From Bryobacterales bacterium (GTDB lineage: Bacteria > Acidobacteriota > Terriglobia > Bryobacterales > UBA6623), in contig OY729427.2 in NCBI GenBank assembly GCA_963422375.2, positions 864,001 to 928,000 on the forward strand: a stretch of DNA of 64,000 bases. The letters run 5' to 3'. Below are positions 482 through 23,335 of this stretch, one piece after another. The notes below the pieces were generated by a model. That model saw nothing but the letters and a program-made list of their open reading frames with translations. It was not told the origin of the DNA and ran no database searches. Made by a program: the position numbers and the translations under genes. Positions within the stretch are counted from its first letter, which is position 1. The number at the start of each line of letters is the position of its first letter.

Positions 482-1887
482 GGGAATTATATATCTGAGT
501 GACTAGGCAACTTATTTGGCAAATCATCAATCCATAATTTAATTTGATATTTCTTCCGGATATCTGTTGAAAGTCTGTGGAGTTTCTTGATAGAATGGTT
601 CCAATATAGGAGGTCGTCATTGAAGAATGAGAAGCAGAAAGATCCCGGGAATTGGTTTCGTAAAGGCATCACGTTGATTGAAGTGATCGCCATGTTCCCC
701 GATGACGAATCCGCGGAAAAGTGGTTCGCCTCCGTGCGCTGGCCGGACGGTCCGGCATGCCCCCGCTGCCGCGGCTCCAGCGTGCAGTCCGGCGCGGCCC
801 ACCCTTCGATGCCGTACCGTTGCCGCGGTTGCGGCAAGCGCTTTTCCGTGCGCGCCGGCAGCGTGACGGCCGACGCCAAGCTCTGCTACCGCGTCCGGGC
901 CGTGGCCCTGTTCCTGCTGACCACCGGCCTCAAGGGCGTCTCCAGCATGAAGCTGCACCGCGACCCGGGCATCAGCCGGAAGTCGGCCCGGCACCTGGCG
1001 CACCGCATCCGCGCGTGCCGGGAGCGGGACCGGGACCTGTTCGTCGGCCCGGTGGAAGTGGACGAGACGTACGTCGGCGGCAAGGAGCGCAACAAGCACG
1101 AGAGCAAGAAGGCCCGCGCCGGGCGCGGGACCGTCGGCAAGACCCCCGTGGCGGGCGCGCGGGACCGCGCCACGAACGAAGCGGCCGCCCGGCCGCTGCC
1201 GGGCACGACCGAGGGCGACCTGCAGGGCTTCGCGCGCGGCCGGGTCGCGCCGGGCGCGCAGGTCCGCTCCGACGAGGCGGCGGCCTGCGCCGGCATGGAG
1301 GAGTTCTCGCACGAAGCCGTCAGGCACTCCGGCGGCGAGTACGTGCGCGGGACAGCGCATGCGAACGGCATCGAGTCGTTCCGGTCCCTGTTCAAGCGCG
1401 GCCTCTACGGAACCTATCACCGGATGAGCGTCCGTCATTCGGGCCGCTACCTCACGGAGTTCGCGGGACGGCGCAACGCCCGCAACTGCGACACGGCGGA
1501 ACGGATGCGGCGCATGGCGCGGGGCCCGGTCGGCCGGACGCTGACCTACCGGCAACTGGTCGGCAAGGCCGCGGTCGCGGCCCGAGCACGACCTAGCCGG
1601 TCCGCTGCGGCCTCTCTTCACGCTCGGTGCGAAGGGCGATCCGGATCCGGAATCCCGCGCCGCGACCGGTGTCCAGCCCGGACAATTCCTACCGGCAGCC
1701 GCCTTGGAAGGGGAGCCTCTCCAGTCCGTGCGCCGCGAAATCCGCTGGCCGCCGCGATTCAGATACGAACCGACCCTTCGGTACCCACCTCGGCCGCACA
1801 CCAATGACCCGAGCAAGACGGCGATGTCCCCAATCAGGGCAGTTCTAGCCGGACATGGCGTCGCCGGCACTCAGATATATAATTCCC
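482..1887 (+). mobile_element. IS1595-family insertion sequence with complete boundaries
   Basis: 20-bp perfect terminal inverted repeats GGGAATTATATATCTGAGTG (482-501) / CACTCAGATATATAATTCCC (1868-1887); identical 8-bp flanks ATTCAATA at 474-481 and 1888-1895 (target-site duplication); encloses a DDE transposase ORF. Confidence 0.95.
620..1807 (+). CDS. IS1595-family transposase, probably inactivated by missense changes and read-through; start uncertain
   Basis: Zn ribbon CPRC...CRGC, VEVDETYVGG, SDE, HxNGIESF, RYLxEF and LTYRQL motifs; several normally conserved W/L/Y positions read R/P/C; ORF runs about 80 codons past the usual LTY end. Confidence 0.9.
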   Translation: MKNEKQKDPGNWFRKGITLIEVIAMFPDDESAEKWFASVRWPDGPACPRCRGSSVQSGAAHPSMPYRCRGCGKRFSVRAGSVTADAKLCYRVRAVALFLLTTGLKGVSSMKLHRDPGISRKSARHLAHRIRACRERDRDLFVGPVEVDETYVGGKERNKHESKKARAGRGTVGKTPVAGARDRATNEAAARPLPGTTEGDLQGFARGRVAPGAQVRSDEAAACAGMEEFSHEAVRHSGGEYVRGTAHANGIESFRSLFKRGLYGTYHRMSVRHSGRYLTEFAGRRNARNCDTAERMRRMARGPVGRTLTYRQLVGKAAVAARARPSRSAAASLHARCEGRSGSGIPRRDRCPARTIPTGSRLGRGASPVRAPRNPLAAAIQIRTDPSVPTSAAHQ

Positions 1888-5408: not shown

Positions 5409-8066
5409 ATGAAACCCCTGACAGGGCTTCCCGTGGACTGCTTCGTGCAGGTATCGCAGGAATGCGACATCCCACTCAAGGACCTTCTGGAGCTGGTGCG
5501 GCAGGTCGAGAACGGCACCTCGGTGGCGTTTCTCGCTAGGTACCGGGCAGATTTGTGCGGAGGTTTGGACGAGGAGAGCGTTCACGGAGCCCTGCGACGG
5601 ATCAGGGAGCGCCAAGACCTGATCGACCACCGGATCTCGATGCTGACGACCTTGGGGCAGCGGGGGGTGCTCACGCCCGCGCTCAGAAAGCAGTTGGAAG
5701 AGGCCTCCGACCGACGCGAGCTCAACGACGTCTTCGCGCCCTACCGCGCACGCAAGCGCGACGAGGCCGACGCGGCGATCGAGAACGGCATGGATCCGCT
5801 CGCTCGCGCGCTGTGGGCCCAGCAGGACGGGGTCGACCTCTTGGAAGAGGCGGCCACGCACTTGGCGCCCGAGAGAGGCATCGACGCAGCCGAGACGGCG
5901 CTCGAGGGCGCTTACGCGATCGCCTCGCGCTGGCTGGGGGAGAAGCCCGAGATCCTGCGGGAGCTGCGCAAGCTCTGTCGGCGGGACTGTGAGCTAGTGG
6001 TGTCAACCCTGCCGGTCGCTCGCAACGACCCTCGCTCCCAAGCCTTGGACGGTTTCCGGGCCAAGGTCGCCGAGGTCGACTGGCACAAGCGGCTGTCCAT
6101 CCGGCGAGGCATCCGCACGGGCGTCCTGGAGGCTCGCACGGAGTTCCCGGTCGAGACCGCTGCACGCTATCTCGAGCGGTGCCTGATCGTGGACGAGGAA
6201 TCCAAGTACGCGCCGCACCTCAAGAAGGTCGTCGCCAAGACACTGGAGAACGGCCTCTTGGAGCGAATCAAAGGCGACGTTCTCCGTCAGATCGACGACC
6301 AGGCCGACGCCGAGGCCGTTGGATCGTACTGCAAGGCGCTGCGCGAGGCTCTTCTCGGCCCCGTAGCCCACGGGCTGAACATCATCGGCGTCGAGACGGG
6401 GCGGCCGGGAGGCTGGCGGGCCGCCTTGATAGACGGCGACGGAGCTCTGGTCGACTACGCGATCGTGCGTCAAGACGACTCTCGCGGCGGGTCGGGGCGG
6501 CAAGGCCGCGCCGCGAGGCGAGCGGATCTGCCCGTCGCGGTGCCGCTCCGCACCGGCCCGCCCGTGGGCGCGCCGCCTCCGCTCCCGAGCGCTGCCGACC
6601 AAGAGGCGGCACCGGAACCGGAGCAGCCGGCGAGTCAGCCTGCCGCCAAGGCGGAAGGCAACGAGACCGCCCCAGAGGGAGCGGCGCCAGAGTCGGAACC
6701 CGCGCCGAAGGAAGGGATCCAAGGCGACCCCAAGCCCCCGAAGCGGGCCCCTCGGGCACAGCAGGCCCGGGTCGCAGAGCTCAGCGAGATCCTCACCGCG
6801 CACGACGTCGACCTGATCGTCTTCCCTGCCGGGCCGCGCCATAGGGACACAGAGAGATTCCTCCGCGCGCAAATCCGCGATTCGGGCAAGACAGAGACAG
6901 CTTGGCTTGCGATGCGCGACAAGGGCACTTGGATATTCGCCACGTCGAAAACCGCCAAGCGCGAATTCCCCCGCCTCGACCCAGCGTTTCGCAGCGCGAT
7001 CAGCCTCGCTCGCAGGGTTCAGGATCCCATGGCGGAACTGGTCAAGGCCGACCCAAGGACCGTGGGCATCGGGAACAATCACCACGAAGTGGACGGGGAG
7101 CGGCTGCGCCGGGCCTTGGGCCTATCTATGGAGCGGGCGGTCCATGACGCCGGGGTGGACGTGAACCGCGCGCACTCGGACCTTCTGGCGCTGGTACCGG
7201 GCATCACTCCGAGGCTCGCGCGGCGGGTGGTGGAGCACCGCAGGGAGCACGGGCCGTTCCGGTCACGCGCGAGCCTGCTCGAGGTCGACGGCCTCGGCGA
7301 GCAGGCCTTTGCCCAAGCTGTGGGCTTCCTGCGGGTGTACGGCGGCGACCCGCTAGACGCCACAGGGGCGCATCCCGAATACCATGCACTGCACGAGCAG
7401 CTCGCCGAGACGGCCGGCTGCGACCTTGCAACCCTGCTGGCCGAGCCCGAGCGACTCGACGCGATCAATGCCGAGGAACTCGCGACACAGGAACGGTCGG
7501 TGGTATTCGTGCAGGCGACCATGGAGGAGCTCAAGCCGTCTCGCAGGCGAGTCCGGGGCAAGTTCCAGCTGCCGACACCGGTCGTGCCGCTCCGGCCGGA
7601 CGAAGAGCTGCGCCCGGGGGCCAAGGTGTCCGGCGTCGTAGCCAGCGTGGCCGACTTTGGCGTCTTCATCGACATCGGCGGCGACCAAGACGGGCTGCTG
7701 CACGTCTCGCAGATCGACCGGGACCGTGTGAAGGACTCGAAACCGGACTTCAATGTCGGCGACTCGGTCGAGGTCTACATCAAGGCCTCCGACCGCAACA
7801 GCAGGCGCATCCTGCTCTCGACGTGGGGCCCGCGCGAGCGACCGCCGCGCGACAGGGACCGCGGCGGCCCGCCCTCCCGGTTCGGCGACAGGCCGGGCGA
7901 CGGCCGACGACGACGCGGGGGGCCTGACCGAGGCGACCGTCGCCGACCGTACAGCCGAACATTCGGGCCCGACACCGAGGAGAGCCGGTCGCGGGGCAGC
8001 CAATCCAGGATGAGCTTGGAAGAGAAGCTGGACCGGCTAAAGGACCAGTACCGGACCAAGGTCTAG
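5409..8066 (+). CDS. tex: Tex-like transcription accessory protein (divergent, with low-complexity insert)
   Basis: GTSVAFLARYR, SAISLARRVQDPMAELVK, GVDVN/HhH region, LDATGAHPE, S1 domain (FGVFIDIG..DGLLHVSQ). Confidence 0.88.
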   Translation: MKPLTGLPVDCFVQVSQECDIPLKDLLELVRQVENGTSVAFLARYRADLCGGLDEESVHGALRRIRERQDLIDHRISMLTTLGQRGVLTPALRKQLEEASDRRELNDVFAPYRARKRDEADAAIENGMDPLARALWAQQDGVDLLEEAATHLAPERGIDAAETALEGAYAIASRWLGEKPEILRELRKLCRRDCELVVSTLPVARNDPRSQALDGFRAKVAEVDWHKRLSIRRGIRTGVLEARTEFPVETAARYLERCLIVDEESKYAPHLKKVVAKTLENGLLERIKGDVLRQIDDQADAEAVGSYCKALREALLGPVAHGLNIIGVETGRPGGWRAALIDGDGALVDYAIVRQDDSRGGSGRQGRAARRADLPVAVPLRTGPPVGAPPPLPSAADQEAAPEPEQPASQPAAKAEGNETAPEGAAPESEPAPKEGIQGDPKPPKRAPRAQQARVAELSEILTAHDVDLIVFPAGPRHRDTERFLRAQIRDSGKTETAWLAMRDKGTWIFATSKTAKREFPRLDPAFRSAISLARRVQDPMAELVKADPRTVGIGNNHHEVDGERLRRALGLSMERAVHDAGVDVNRAHSDLLALVPGITPRLARRVVEHRREHGPFRSRASLLEVDGLGEQAFAQAVGFLRVYGGDPLDATGAHPEYHALHEQLAETAGCDLATLLAEPERLDAINAEELATQERSVVFVQATMEELKPSRRRVRGKFQLPTPVVPLRPDEELRPGAKVSGVVASVADFGVFIDIGGDQDGLLHVSQIDRDRVKDSKPDFNVGDSVEVYIKASDRNSRRILLSTWGPRERPPRDRDRGGPPSRFGDRPGDGRRRRGGPDRGDRRRPYSRTFGPDTEESRSRGSQSRMSLEEKLDRLKDQYRTKV

Positions 8067-8743: not shown

Positions 8744-8906
8744 CGTCGCGTCGAGGGCAGTAGCAGACGACGGAAGCAGGCCCGGGGCGGACGCGCCAAG
8801 GGAGTCACTCTGCCGGGAGCGGACGCATCAACTCGGCCGGGAGCGACCGATCACGGCAGCGATGCTAGCCTCCGCTTGTAGGACGAATCGCATTCCTGCT
8901 AGCCGA

Positions 8907-8967
8907 GGGAATTATATATCTGAGTGCCGATAACGCCATATCCGGCTAGAACTGCTCTGATCGGGGA
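8907..8967 (-). mobile_element. Isolated right end of the IS1595 element
   Basis: About 60 bp matching the reverse complement of about 1828-1887, including the 20-bp TIR, with 6 substitutions; ends 2 bp before the next IS. Confidence 0.9.
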
Positions 8968-8969
8968 GG

Positions 8970-10394
8970 CAGCGGTTCTAAATTTAGCCGTCAAGGGGAT
9001 GCGTGAACGTTGTTTCGGAGGATGGAGGATGAGGTGAATAAGTTGACCGAGAGGTTGCGCTCCCGAGGCCGCCCGCGGGAGCGTCGGACGGCGGGCAGGG
9101 CCGTGGCGCGGCCCGCGTCGCGGGTCCGCGGAGTGCCGAGCCCGCGGCCGGACGCACTCCGGCGGTAGCCGGCTGCGACGGTCGGCCGCCCGCCGGACGC
9201 TGCCGGCACGAAACTGCACGGAGTCCAGGCCCCGGCCGCCCGGCCGCCTGGCAGCCCGGAGGCGCGCGTCCGTCGCGCACCGCCGCCAGCAGCGCCGGCC
9301 GGTCCGGGAAGCGGAGCCAGCGCAGCGCGACCTGCAGCTCCCGGAACAGGGCGCGGCGCGTGACCAGCTGGCGCCGGCACTGCCGCCGCAGCGCGCAGAC
9401 GCACTGCACCACGGCGTGGAGCGCGAAGGCGAACGGGTTCGGCACGGCCGGCACGTTGGCCAGCCCTTCCTTGCCGTGCCCGAAGTTGCGCTTGCAGTTG
9501 CGGCCGTGCCGCGCCAGGCAGTTGAAGCCCTCGTTCTCGATCTTCCAGCGCGCCCGGCCGGCCCGCGCGATCCGCTCCGCGTTGTCCGCGGTGACCGCGA
9601 GACCGGTGAAGAAGCTGTTGGCGCAGGTGCGCTTGCCGTCGCGCTCCACGGCGTACTCGAGCCAAGTGCCCCGCAGGGCGTCGCGGCCCTGGCGCAGGGG
9701 CGCCGCGGCCGTCCGGCGGAAACGGTGCCGCTCGGACCGCTTGCCCTTCCCGCGCCGCGGCAGCCAGCCGGTCGAGCGCACCGCGCCGCTCGCCCGCCGG
9801 CTCTCCGGCACCTCGTGCAAGTGCTTGCGGGATCCGGGCTTGCCTACCCGGATGCAGTCCATGCCGGCCGCCGCGGCGGCCTCGCAGAGCGGCTGGCAGC
9901 AGTACAGGTCGTCGCCCGGCAGGACGGGGCGGCAGGACGGACCACTCGCCGTCCAAAGCCGCGAGCAGGCGCTGGAAGGGCGCGAGCGCGCCCTGCGCGG
10001 CCACGGTTTGCAGGCCCGGCCGGAACAGCGAGCCGCACGCGGCCGGGTCGAGGCGGTCGAGCAAGTTGCGGATCCGGTTGTCGCAGGGGATGCGGCCCAC
10101 GCCGAGCAGGGTCGGGCAGTTGGAGCGGGAGCCGTCCCGCTCTATGCGCCGCTGGAACTGGAGGAACGACTCGCACCGGGGGCAGAAGCAGGCCGGGGCG
10201 CAACCGGCGGCGTCCCTGACCGCGTAGCGCGTGTTGCGACGCGCGCGACGGTCGCGCAGGCCGGCGGCCGTCCCGCGGAAGGCGCTCGGGAGCGAGTCCA
10301 GGACATGGGGCATACATCCTGACTCACGAGATCCGCGAGCGAAAGTCACTCGGACACTCTGGAAATCCCAAGATTCCCGAATTGAGGATCGCTG
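8970..10394 (-). mobile_element. ISNCY-like insertion sequence, copy 1 (internal deletion, transposase pseudogene)
   Basis: Imperfect TIRs CAGCGGTTCTAAATTT / GAATTGAGGATCGCTG; motifs GRARWKIENEGFN, NFGHG, IPCDNxIRNLLD; about 270 bp missing relative to copy 2 near 9938; flanks differ so no TSD. Confidence 0.9.
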
Positions 10395-18298: not shown

Positions 18299-20353
18299 AT
18301 GGACAACTACCTAGCGCTAGCGCCGGTTCTGGGCGCAGTCGGCTTGGCGGGCGCTCTCGTCGGCCTGCTGGCGGTGCGCAGGAACTCACCCGGCAACGCC
18401 CGCATGCAGGGCGTGTCGCGCCTGATCCGGGTTGGCGCGATGGCCTTCCTCCGTCGCGAATACAGCATCCTGGCGATCTTCGTCGCCGCCGTGGCCGGCC
18501 TGATCGCGTGGAAGCTCGGCGCGCCGATGGCGCTGACCTTTGCCGTCGGCGCGCTGTGCTCGATCGCGGCCGGCCTGTGCGGCATGAACGCAGCGACGCT
18601 GGCGAACTCACGCACGAGCGAGGCCGCCCGCACGAGCGGGATCGACGCGGCCCTCACAGTGGCCTTCAGCGGGGGCTCGGTCATGGGCCTCTCCGTGGCA
18701 GGCCTCGGGCTGCTGGGCGTGGGCCTGCTGGCGGTCAGCTTCCCGGATCCGTCGAGCGCCGTCTACCTCAACGGCTTCGCCATGGGGGCGAGCTCGATCG
18801 CGCTGTTCGCGCGCGTCGGCGGGGGCATCTTCACCAAGGCGGCCGACGTCGGCGCCGACCTCGTCGGGAAGGTCGAAGCCGGCATCCCGGAAGACGACCC
18901 GCGCAATCCCGGCGTGATCGCAGACAATGTCGGGGACAACGTCGGGGACGTGGCAGGAATGGGCGCGGACATCTTCGAGTCGTTCGTCGGCTCGATGATC
19001 GCCAGCCTCGCAATCGCGGCAACGCTGCCCGAAGGAGCTCTGGCACAGCTGGCGGGAACACTCGGGGGCGAAGCGCTCCGCTCGTCGCTGATGGCGCTGC
19101 CGCTCGTGCTGTCCTCCGTCGGACTGGTCGCGTCGCTGCTCGGCATCCTGTCGGTGCGCGTGCTGCGGTCGGCCGGGCCCGCGGCCGCGCTGCGGTACTC
19201 GGTGTGGCTGAGTGCCCTGCTATTCCTCGCGGGCGGCTACTTCATCGGCAAGGCCATGGGCGTGGGCGCGGGCGTGTTCGGGGCGGTCGTCTCCGGATGC
19301 CTGGCCGGCGTGGCGATCGGCTACATCACCGAGTACTACACCTCGATGGGCCCGGTTCTCCGCATCGCCGAGGCGTCGCGGATGGGATCGGCCACGAACA
19401 TCATCGAAGGCCTCTCGACCGGCTTCCGCAGCTGCGCGCCGCCAGTGCTGGTGATCTGCGCGGCGATCCACCTCGCCCACGACGCGGCCGGCCTGTACGG
19501 AATCGGGATCGCCGCCGTCGGCATGCTGGCCACCGTCGGCATCACGATGACCGTGGACGCCTACGGCCCGATCGCCGACAACGCCGGAGGCATCTCGGAG
19601 ATGTGCGGCCTGCCCGGCGAAGTACGCTCGATCACCGACCGGCTCGATTCGCTCGGCAACACGACCGCGGCGATGGGGAAGGGCTTCGCCATCGGCTCCG
19701 CGGCCCTGGCGGCCCTGGCGCTGTTCTCGGCCTACACGCAGGCGCTCGACAGCGCCCGGGCGGCCGCCGGGCTGGAACCCATCTCGATCCCGCTCAACGA
19801 CGCGGACGTCGTGATCGGCCTGATGCTGGGAGGGATCCTGCCGTTCCTGATCTCGGCACTCACGATGAAGGCGGTGGGCAGAGCGGCGGGCAAAATCATC
19901 GACGAGATCCGGCGCCAGTTCCGCGAGATCGCCGGCCTCCTCGAGGGCCGCGCCGGCGTCGAGCCGGATGCGGCGCGCTGCGTGGACATCGCGACCGCGG
20001 CCGCGCTCAGGGAAATGATCCTGCCGGGGGTCATCGCGGTGTCGGCACCGGTTCTCGTGGGCGTCGCCCTGGGCCCCGCGGCGCTGGGCGGGACGCTGGC
20101 CGGCGCGACGGTGACCGGAGTCCTGCTGGCCCTGTTCATGGCCAACGCCGGGGGTGCCTGGGACAACGCCAAGAAAGCGATCGAGCAGGGAGCTGTTTCC
20201 GGGGAAAGCAAGGGTTCGGACGGGCACAAGGCGTCGGTGGTGGGCGATACCGTCGGCGACCCGTTCAAGGACACATCCGGGCCGTCAATGAACATACTGA
20301 TCAAGCTGATGTCGATCGTGGCCCTCGTCATCGCCCCGATCATCGCTGTGTAG
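18299..20353 (+). CDS. hppA: Membrane-bound pyrophosphatase, K+-dependent, probably Na+-translocating
   Basis: [45 protein letters not shown] (Ala form, K+-dependent), [10 protein letters not shown]. Confidence 0.95.
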
Positions 20354-20895
20354 GGACGGAATCAACGCCGAAGCGAAGCGTTGCCAAAGCGAGACCGCAC
20401 CGACCGACGGGCCACACGAGAAATCACCGGATCAGGGCAGCGTGAGATTATCACGAGATTCGCAAACCAACTCAACCGCCGTGAAGGGATACGGTGTTTC
20501 CGTCAGCTCCGTCGCGTTGATGTTGGACTATAGCCTGTCCCGACCCCGCTCCGTTTGGCTGGTTTAACATGTCGCACGAATCCGACGGATCGTGAGAATC
20601 GTATGAGACTCCAGAGCCCCCGCCAAGGATCGAGAACGGCTGCTGTGGACGCAGTTGGAGTGTTCGATACCGGATCCAATGGCCCCGGAGATCTGTATTC
20701 TTAGCCGTGACAATGTACTGTGCAAGAGGTCGTCTCCAGTCGATAACACGGGACTCAAGCCTGCGAAAGGGAGACTGAGAGAGTCGAGATTCTGCATCCC
20801 AGGCCTACCGTCGGGAAGACTGGTTTCCGGCAAGTCTGGGATTCTCTCGGGCCCCTTGATGCCGACAATTCTAGTGCAGGGAGACTTCCTTCCGT

Positions 20896-22601
20896 CAGCG
20901 GTTCTAAATTTGGCCGTCAAGGGGGTGCGTGAACGTTGTTTCGGAGGATGAGGTGAATAAGTTGACCGAGAGGTTGCGCTCCTGAGGCCGCCCCGCGGGA
21001 GCGTCGGACGGCGGGCAGGGCCGTGGTGCGGGTCCGCCGAGTGCCGAGCCCGCGGCCGGACGCACTCCGGCGGTAGCCGGCTGCGACGGTCGGCCGCTCG
21101 CCGGACGCTGCCGGCACGAAACTGCGCGGAGTCCAGGCCCCGGCTGCCCGGCCGCCTGGCAGCCCGGAGGCGCGCGTCCGGCGCGCACCGCCGCCAGCAG
21201 CGTCGGCCAGTCCGGGAAACGGAACCAGCGCAGCGCGACCTGCAGCTCCCGGAACAGGGCGCGGCGCGTGACCGGCTGGCGCAGCGCGCAGACGCACTGC
21301 ACCACGGCGTGGAGTGCGAAGGCGAACAGGTTCGGCACGGCCAGCACGTTGGCCAGCCCTTCCTTGCCGTGCCCGAAGTTGCGCTTGAAGTTGCGGCCGT
21401 GCCGCGCCAGGCAGTTGAAGCCCTCGTTCTCGATCTTCCAGCGCGCCCGGCCGGCGCGCGCGATCCGCTCCGCGTTGTCCGCGGTGACCGCGAGACCGGT
21501 GAAGAAGCTGCTGGCGTAGGTGCGCTTGCCGTCGCGCTCCACGGCGTACTCGAGCCAAGTGCCCTGCAGGGCGTCGCGGCCCTGGCGCAGGGGCACCGCG
21601 GCCGTCCGGCGGAAACGGTGCCGCTCGGACCGCTTGCCCTTCCCGCGCCGCGGCAGCCAGCCGGTCGAGCGCACCGCGCCGCTCGCCCGCCGGCTCTCCG
21701 GCACCTCGTACAATCCCTTGCGGGATCCGGGCTTGCCTACCCGGATGCAGTCCATGCCGGCCGCCGCGGCGGCCTCGCAGACCGGCTGGCAGCAGTACAG
21801 GGCGTCGCCCGGCAGGACGGGGCGGCAGGCCTGCAGCCAGGCGCCGTCAGCGGCGAGCCAGCGCTTGGCGGCGTTGCGCTCGCAGTCCCGCTTGCGCTCG
21901 TCCTCGCTCGTGTCGGCGCGGGTCGCGGCCGCGGCCTGCAGCGGGCGCACGAACTCGGGCATCAGCGGCAGGACGGTGGCGTGGCCGTCGGCCACCGCGG
22001 TGGCCGCGACCATGGCGTGGAAGTGATGCGGCCGGCGCTCGCTGCCGACGCGCCGCACCGAGCACTGCGGGCCATGCACCCTGTCGGAGCGGTGGAACCG
22101 GACGCCGTCCGGCGCCGCCGGCAGGCGCTCGTCGAGGCGCTGGAAGGGCTCGAGCGCGCCCGGCGCGGCCACGGTTGCGAGGCACCGCCGGAAGAGCGGG
22201 TCGAACGCGGCCGGGTCGAGGTCGTCGAGCAAGTTGCGGATCCGGTTGTCGCAGGGGATGCGGCCCACGCCGCACAGGGTCCGGCAGTTGGAGCGGGAGC
22301 CGTCCCGCTCCATGCGCCGCTGGAACGCGAGCAACGACTCGCACCGGGTGCAGAAGCAGGCCGGGGCGCACCAGGGCGCAACCGGCGGCGTCGCTGACCT
22401 CGTAGCGCTTGTTGCTGCGACCGTCGCGCCGGTCGGGCCGGCCGGCGGCCGTCTCGCGGAAGGCGCTCAGCGGCGAGTCCAGGACATGGGGCATACACCT
22501 TAGCTCACAAATTCCGCAAGGAAAAGTCAAGTGCCAGACTGCCTTCGACACCTTTCTCAGACACTCTGGAAATCCCAAAATGCCCAAATTGAGAATCGCT
22601 G
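20896..22601 (-). mobile_element. ISNCY-like insertion sequence, copy 2 with complete boundaries
   Basis: TIRs CAGCGGTTCTAAATTTGG / CCAAATTGAGAATCGCTG; 9-bp TSD TCCTTCCGT at 20887-20895 and 22602-22610; homologous to 8970-10394. Confidence 0.95.
20904..22494 (-). pseudogene. ISNCY-like DDE transposase, frameshifted
   Basis: ATG at 22494 (MPHVLDS...); 10-bp tandem duplication near 22362-22381 breaks the frame; DCERNAAKRW, GDALYC, RWKIENEGFN, NFGHG. Confidence 0.88.
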
Positions 22602-23335
22602 TCCTTCCGTTCCTTTTCACGGCAGTTTCGAGGTATCGCTGGCCCGCTCGAGGGCCAAGTGGGCGTCGATCCGGAGGCGGACCGCTGCGTGGACATCGGG
22701 ACTTCAGTCGCTCTCAGGGGAATAATACCGTCGCGAGTTGAATTCGTGTCGGCTCCGGCTCTCGCGCGGACTTCAACTCATTCTGGCGGCCGGGCAGGCA
22801 GGTGACAAGCGAGAGCGCGCGACGATCGCAGGCGTACCGCCAGCTAAGAGGACTCGGACTTGCGGAACCTGGCCCCGCCGTCGGCAAGGAGAGGCACCCT
22901 TGGCTTTCCGGAATGTCCGAGGGCAGCGCCCGCGAAGCTCCCCGGGATCGCTTTCCATTCGCCACCGATCGTCTGGAACCGACACGAAACCAGTAGTTGC
23001 AATCTCCGGCCTCGTAACCGTCAAGGCCTCCCAGCGAGGTGGCGGGCCCTGCTCCGGACGAGCCGAGCGCACGGACGGGGTGGCTGCGATAGCCGGCGAC
23101 GAATCCGGGTCCGCGGGCCCACGCCGTTGCCGCCCTAGAATCTTACGAGTCGCTTTCCGCTCGGCTGCGGCATTGGAAGCCCGCTCCGGCGTGATTCATT
23201 CCCGGCCATCAATGGTCGCGGCCGGCGAGGCGGCCGACCGCTCGAGCCTCCGCTCGACGCCAGGCTCCGCGTAGGCGCGCGATGCAGGCCAGATGCAGGC
23301 CAAGCGCGCCGCCTGCTCTGGTAGATTGGGAAGGG

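Follow-up and report, generated by a model that had tools for sequence, protein, structure and literature searches.

The window, by which we mean the whole 64,000-nucleotide stretch of DNA that was analyzed, is part of a 6.0 Mb genome in three contigs that has a GC content of 67%, is 96% complete and is rich in repeats, with 18% of its bases having another copy. It contains two degenerate copies of the same insertion sequence (IS), here called copy 1 and copy 2, and a copy of a second, unrelated IS. The features discussed below are the following:

482 to 1887, plus strand: copy of an IS1595-family element, from a family of about 136 distinct copies and fragments with the same directional pattern
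8970 to 10394, minus strand: copy 1, the same IS as copy 2, 1425 bp, 74% GC
20887 to 20895, plus strand: left target-site duplication of copy 2, 9 bp
20896 to 20913: terminal inverted repeat of 18 nt at the 3' end of copy 2, with 89% complementarity to 22584-22601
20896 to 22601, minus strand: copy 2, a degenerate DDE-type IS, 1706 bp, 73% GC, with its transposase spread across three frames
21802, minus strand: D228A in the GDDLY motif, an A>C change of the coding strand that is derived in copy 2
22364 to 22373: tandem duplication of 10 bp that shifts the frame and has a mosaic presence in roughly half of the family copies
22584 to 22601: terminal inverted repeat at the 5' end of copy 2
22602 to 22610, plus strand: right target-site duplication of copy 2, 9 bp

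Both copies lie where the sequence-only reading had placed them, with a minus-strand transposase and 18-bp terminal inverted repeats. The residue differences that it listed were also recovered, namely VPAVPNPF, NCKR, LRFPDRP and TCAN in copy 1 against VLAVPNLF, NFKR, FRFPDWP and TYAS in copy 2, and conversely LPAAPDG and GDALY in copy 2 against LLAALDG and GDDLY in copy 1. The read-through toward the inverted repeat is real, since codons 425 to 540 contain no common stop except at codon 487 in 4 of 47 copies, and the intact relatives are about 450 to 460 amino acids long. Copy 1 lacks about 300 bp internally and has retained its inverted repeats, and no target duplication flanks it. An IS1595-type end fragment is located just ahead of it, at 8906-8950, which together with the missing target duplication suggests nesting or rearrangement.

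The family to which copies 1 and 2 belong contains about 65 to 66 degenerate copies and fragments of a 1.7-kb IS, and 109 ends resembling its inverted repeats were identified in the genome. The traits of a DDE-type IS are present, with 18-bp inverted repeats, a 9-bp target duplication and conserved D/D/E residues, of which D126 was found in 50 of 51 relatives and D227 and E352 in all 51. The ISNCY assignment made from the sequence could not be confirmed, as an intact relative matched only the IS4 (E=9e-4) and DDE_Tnp_1 models, both below their cut-offs, and none of 40 inspected members of its protein cluster carried a name. The nearest named relatives were records of metagenome-assembled genomes labelled "Bryobacterales bacterium". 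This family is dead, or almost dead: each of the 39 near-full copies carries 20 to 43 lesions across the 221 conserved codons. In GDDLY, D227 is invariant among the 51 relatives and D228 is variable.

Short-read contigs from two studies showed no differences to the unique DNA in pieces as long as 8.3 kb. The IS itself had many times the flanking depth in these contigs, and both alleles were recovered at the listed IS sites, with the alternative allele also present at the D228A site, while a copy-1 piece matched at single-copy depth. An assembly or polishing artefact would be a natural suspicion in repeats, which are hard to assemble, all the more since the short-read contigs end at the IS ends and do not span the element. 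The identity of the independent contigs in unique DNA and the depths of the two alleles and of the copy-1 piece make it extremely improbable as the source of the differences, and such an artefact would have no reason to prefer G/C at [T]GG, the preferred context described below. It was also noted that the unique DNA of 7500-30400 was identical or one letter off in the listed contigs of runs X1, X5, X7, X8 and X12, which come from five studies, one of them of 2015, under four organism labels, pointing to a nearly clonal strain.

To polarize the changes, a residue was taken as ancestral when 9 or more of the 10 intact relatives shared it, a rule that 221 of the 293 conserved codons satisfied. 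Positions 4 nt or less from a gap were masked, and the removal of a segmental duplicate and a tandem fragment left 63 copies. Polarization by the family consensus was dropped, as the consensus is itself full of derived lesions; it is a general caution that the consensus of an IS family is not its ancestor. Two practically identical old copies, at C1:52615 and C2:2735707, likely represent a recent segmental duplication.

Copies 1 and 2 differ by 79 point differences, 60 of which pair an A/T with a G/C base. This excess, on which the sequence-only reading had partly relied, is near chance, given an expectation of 2/3 under uniform changes (p=0.049) and of 3/4 if transitions are mildly favored (p=0.48). 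The other part of the claim, that the damaging allele is the G/C one, was borne out: the 15 differences scored at conserved codons comprised 7 T>C, 4 T>G, 3 C>G and 1 C>T changes, giving 11 A/T>G/C changes against 1 reverse (p=3e-4 given the opportunity), so that outgroup polarization did not yield the comparable counts that had been named as refuting the earlier reading. Independent gains of G/C in each copy, as had been proposed, were mostly not found, since both copies have another 10 derived lesions in common, 9 of which are A/T>G/C, and the alleles segregate in a mosaic fashion across the family. In the TCAN/TYAS motif, Y323C is the derived allele of copy 1 and N325S that of copy 2.

Over the 221 codons and 63 copies, the derived load per opportunity was 0.098 for T>C, 0.018 for T>G, 0.016 for C>T, 0.011 for C>G, 0.0075 for C>A and 0.002 for T>A, and the GC content at second codon positions has risen from 0.475 to about 0.54 in the family. 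The T>C outcomes include CTG to CCG (L>P), CAG to CGG (Q>R), TGG to CGG (W>R) and TAC to TGC (Y>C). Because T>C cannot create a stop codon, the reading frames stay open.

The direction of change depended on whether an allele was shared or private. T>C changes were present in at least 5 copies at 31 sites and as singletons at 37, compared with 3 and 49 sites for C>T (p=1e-6), although the singletons themselves were balanced (37/191 for T>C, 49/237 for C>T). For the IS1595 family, which was scored in 127 of the 136 distinct copies at 111 codons against 24 relatives, T>C reached at least 10% of the copies at 12 sites with 20 singletons and C>T at none with 31 singletons (p=1e-4), the singletons amounting to 20/92 and 31/131, respectively. 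The earlier suggestion that the pattern extends to a second, unrelated IS family thus holds. The equilibrium GC content implied by the private mutations was 0.56 to 0.63 in the first family and 0.48 to 0.53 in IS1595. For a third family, of the DDE_Tnp_1_4 type and with about 25 copies, the search at the chosen cut-off yielded relatives in only 2 of 30 genomes.

A/T>G/C alleles spread, whereas G/C>A/T alleles stay private. Among the close copies of both families the ratio of shared to single changes was 69:25 for A/T>G/C and 9:32 for G/C>A/T (p=4e-8), and with TG sites excluded it was still 29:19 for A/T>G/C (p=3e-4). Unbiased conversion at low mutation rates predicts equal ratios, so the difference between the classes counts in favor of biased conversion. 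G/C>A/T alleles of high frequency were few; they may be mis-polarized and were retained in the counts. GC-neutral changes had a ratio of 17:12, with 17:9 for G>C and 0:3 for A>T, and their sharing did not differ significantly from that of A/T>G/C changes (p=0.16); under textbook GC-biased gene conversion, G>C is neutral, and its frequent sharing counts against that reading.

The spreading alleles had a strong sequence context. The mean frequency of T>C was 0.25 at CTG, 0.24 at GTG, 0.17 at ATG and 0.27 at GTA (n=4), and only 0.008 at TTG, 0.005 at TTC and 0.004 at CTC, so that T>C at high frequency was mostly confined to TG with a peak at [T]GG, while the shared transversions often produced GC at G[N]R. 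Both strands were hit alike (0.093 and 0.105). The private T>C changes were free of context, at 6.1 and 5.4 per 1000 when sites already polymorphic were excluded. C[T]GG sites were bimodal, with 10 of 17 at frequencies of at least 0.5 and 6 of 17 at zero, as would result if new alleles arose slowly and then spread fast. It had been suggested that a motif would indicate a deaminase and its absence GC-biased conversion. There is indeed a strong motif, but it is found only among shared alleles, on both strands and with transversions as well, and it therefore does not separate the two models. Counts of short words over the genome gave no clear CCGG or CTGG signature. In single-copy DNA, GTGCAC had an observed to expected ratio of 0.14 and CCAGG was depleted to 0.66, hinting at restriction or methylation.

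A dedicated system for repeat inactivation, such as a reverse form of RIP or an adenine deaminase that targets IS DNA, would suit an effect that is concentrated in multi-copy elements and at conserved residues, that has a motif, and that is absent from the IS1595 copies sampled in three sister genomes. We consider it very unlikely, since T>G and C>G transversions spread too, which a deaminase cannot make, the two strands show no asymmetry, the alleles are shared and linked instead of forming private clusters with a motif, and stops are not favored, with 20 stop codons in 47 copies.

A more serious alternative is recurrent mutation in specific contexts, in which T>C at [T]GG and G[T]A and N>C at G[N]R would arise 10 to 50 times faster than elsewhere, for example through Vsr acting on T:G errors of replication, and would be redistributed by unbiased conversion. 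The strong motif, with CTG and GTG so far above TTC and CTC, is what this would produce. Against it stand the lack of a motif among the private changes and the failure of G/C>A/T alleles to spread even in comparison with the classes outside TG.

The copies exchange short patches. For 83 sites in 32 close copies of the first family, r2 was 0.14 at distances of up to 10 bp, 0.09 at 11 to 25 bp, 0.064 at 26 to 50 bp and about 0.04 beyond, where from about 50 bp onward it was at the level of shuffled data (0.038 observed, 0.037 shuffled). All four gametes were present in about 0.9 of the distant site pairs, a fraction equal to that under free shuffling. The decay of linkage was repeated in IS1595 and for pairs including TG/CG sites, and genomic distance was only weakly related to the similarity of copies (rho 0.12). 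The exchange would be non-reciprocal, as expected of gene conversion.

These patterns also bear on whether the family descends by serial transposition from a degenerating master copy in a mutator deficient in mismatch repair. The family tree has two divergence classes, and many derived alleles are near fixation within the closer class, as such descent would give. The tree is nevertheless star-like, and even the least damaged copy carries 20 lesions. The four-gamete fraction at the free-shuffle level largely refutes this model, serial descent being unable to give either it or the mosaic 10-bp duplication, and descent from a master copy is accordingly most improbable. A mutator was ruled out in its own right, as the frames of MutS (878 residues) and MutL (631 residues) are full-length.

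Copies of the first family with fewer private mutations were richer in [T]GG changes (0.39 vs 0.26, p=0.008), that is, the more diverged copies have fewer such alleles, which speaks against recurrent mutation; in IS1595 the load did not drop with private divergence (rho 0.14, not significant). When diverged copies were examined for cleaned tracts surrounding derived alleles, the values were 0.86 vs 1.11 (p=0.08) in the first family, and no such tracts were seen in IS1595. In a crude simulation, biased conversion had a log-likelihood of -149.3 compared with -153.6 for hot-spot mutation, which fitted nearly as well when combined with very strong unbiased conversion; biased conversion needed a mutation input of about 4 times the baseline, at the edge of the grid. 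This modest preference of about 4 log units and the cleaned-tract result leave the hot-spot alternative with a substantial minority share of the probability.

The effect depends on being multi-copy. Single-copy controls, taken from 1.6 Mb of two relatives, comprised 420 intact and 17 apparently broken genes, in which the rate of change at [T]GG was 0.035 and 0.053 (14/262), respectively, and that of other T>C changes 0.025 and 0.041; the broken genes are not age-matched to the IS copies and some may be false calls. A version with two outgroups (251 intact and 5 broken genes) agreed. With comparable scoring, the [T]GG load was 0.34 and 0.32 at loci with 20 or more copies, and in low-copy IS relics with 0 to 3 other copies it was 7/53, against 9/201 for other T>C changes. 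The load thus rises with the opportunity for recombination, from broken host genes through low-copy relics to loci with 20 or more copies, the ages of these classes being unmatched. Under recurrent mutation the broken single-copy genes should show the motif, and their [T]GG rate of 0.053 is close to the 0.041 of other T>C changes, while the residual signal in the low-copy relics is in its favor and tells against a simple rule of copy number. A single distant relic had a general excess of A/T>G/C changes (13/152 vs 4/221), which likewise counts against biased conversion.

No excess of T>C or [T]GG changes was observed for IS1595 in the sister genomes G008 (10 and 8 distinct copies), G015 (10) and G046 (16, 6 and 8), and 40 pooled IS1595 loci from four genomes, which are not independent, had 12/561 at [T]GG. 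These copies were chosen among the best-scoring matches and look younger or still under selection, and the result does not imply that the process is unique to the present genome. The sister-genome copies were often mosaic, and in the mosaic of L365-L401 in G046 the shared variants were rich in transversions, unlike those of the present genome.

The open frames of the genome include RecA, MutS, MutL, a MutY-like gene, two uracil glycosylases and one Vsr. The vsr gene is a single open frame of 145 amino acids that scored above the cut-off of the Pfam Vsr model and matched the structures 1cw0 and 1vsr (E=1e-29), and all 4 relatives that were checked have a Vsr too. No methyltransferase was found beside the vsr locus, the 18 methyltransferase matches all being located elsewhere, and private C>T changes were not raised at CCG. 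Among these 18 matches, several of which are broken, those to a C5-methyltransferase at C1:1834233, C2:1339756 and C3:16926 had identical scores, and G003 had no C5-methyltransferase matches. NucS was not found in the present genome, at its 96% completeness, nor in 2 of 4 relatives.

The reading that we prefer, and to which we assign a probability of roughly 0.65, is ectopic gene conversion in short patches between IS copies with context-dependent, GC-biased repair. A mutation would arise in one IS copy, and a heteroduplex of the RecA type would form between copies, in which short-patch repair would settle each mismatch separately toward C:G, most strongly at T:G in [T]GG. The G/C allele would then sweep the IS family, with no selection to halt it. 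The bias would thus act in the heteroduplex, and a mild, context-specific rise in the origin of mutations probably adds to it.

For the T>C part the orphan Vsr, as a T:G endonuclease, is a possible but doubtful candidate enzyme, and MutY could be a putative source of A:G to C:G repair. The motif of the E. coli Vsr is CTWGG. Very-short-patch repair by Vsr converts T:G to C:G in a sequence context and is stimulated by MutL (PMC6116569), and by analogy the present pattern fits such repair at [T]GG, but the gene here has no adjacent methyltransferase, relatives possess a Vsr as well, and the transversions cannot be explained by it. More speculatively, Vsr-like repair at [T]GG and a second activity at G[N]R might together constitute a molecular drive that sweeps damaging G/C alleles, collectively kills high-copy families and may have raised the GC content of the lineage. 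We regard this extension as rather unlikely; if true, bacterial GC-biased conversion would have been measured inside a single genome and its enzyme could be named.

It has long been asked why many bacterial genomes are rich in GC although mutation is biased toward A/T. GC-biased conversion in bacteria was proposed from a recombination-linked preference for G/C that was ascribed to biased repair and that can drive deleterious alleles (Lassalle et al. 2015, PMC4450053). In the parts of that paper drawn on here, the evidence comes from recombination between strains and the GC content of core genes, so that it rests on indirect correlations, and direct tests are called future work. The link between recombination and G/C is common to both cases, but here the exchange involves paralogous IS copies within one genome and the preference is very strong and dependent on context. 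The nearest published observation concerns paralogs of Mycobacterium tuberculosis (preprint PMC13061034), in which intragenomic tracts have a median of 101 bp and paralogous regions are enriched for T>C and depleted of C>T. According to the sections of the preprint drawn on here, the events are mostly in PE/PPE, REP13E12 and ESX loci, with 7 in IS, and are ascribed to reduced NucS repair. Short tracts and T>C enrichment are shared with the present case, whereas in those sections no family-wide damaging sweep is reported, and no NucS was found here.

Conversion between dead IS copies is itself not new. Gene conversion among non-functional IS copies has reportedly been described in Wolbachia by Cordaux in 2009 (cited in PMC3205602), where, going by the title, it maintains the copies; the title names no GC direction, unlike the present case. 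Our literature search, with most subscription journals and supplements outside its scope, found no report of directional conversion or of a sweep through bacterial IS families. Hundreds of dead IS copies form a neutral population inside one genome that can be polarized by intact relatives, and the frequency spectrum, the scale of the tracts and the context can be read from them directly and point to a repair enzyme that can be tested. If biased conversion is the correct reading, they provide a rare single-genome view of a process still debated in bacteria. The shared damage suggests a route to IS extinction.

At every codon position the core genes are richer in GC than their counterparts in two relatives, with a GC3 of 0.88 vs 0.79 and 0.81 in an unrooted comparison, which is in line with recurrent mutation. 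The intact H+-pyrophosphatase gene at 18299-20353 has a GC3 of 0.91, the highest of 30 genomes. The pyrophosphatase gene at L135 of G045 has a GC3 of 0.56, compared with 0.80 to 0.91 in the other 29 genomes of the genus, and provides a natural AT-ward contrast. Adjoining copy 2, at 22614-22775, is a decayed single-copy fragment of a second H+-pyrophosphatase gene with 56% identity to the intact gene and a third-position GC content of 0.61 vs 0.91. The Tex-like gene at 5409-8066 contains one stop relative to its orthologue and changes at 67 of 475 conserved codons, and is possibly decaying.
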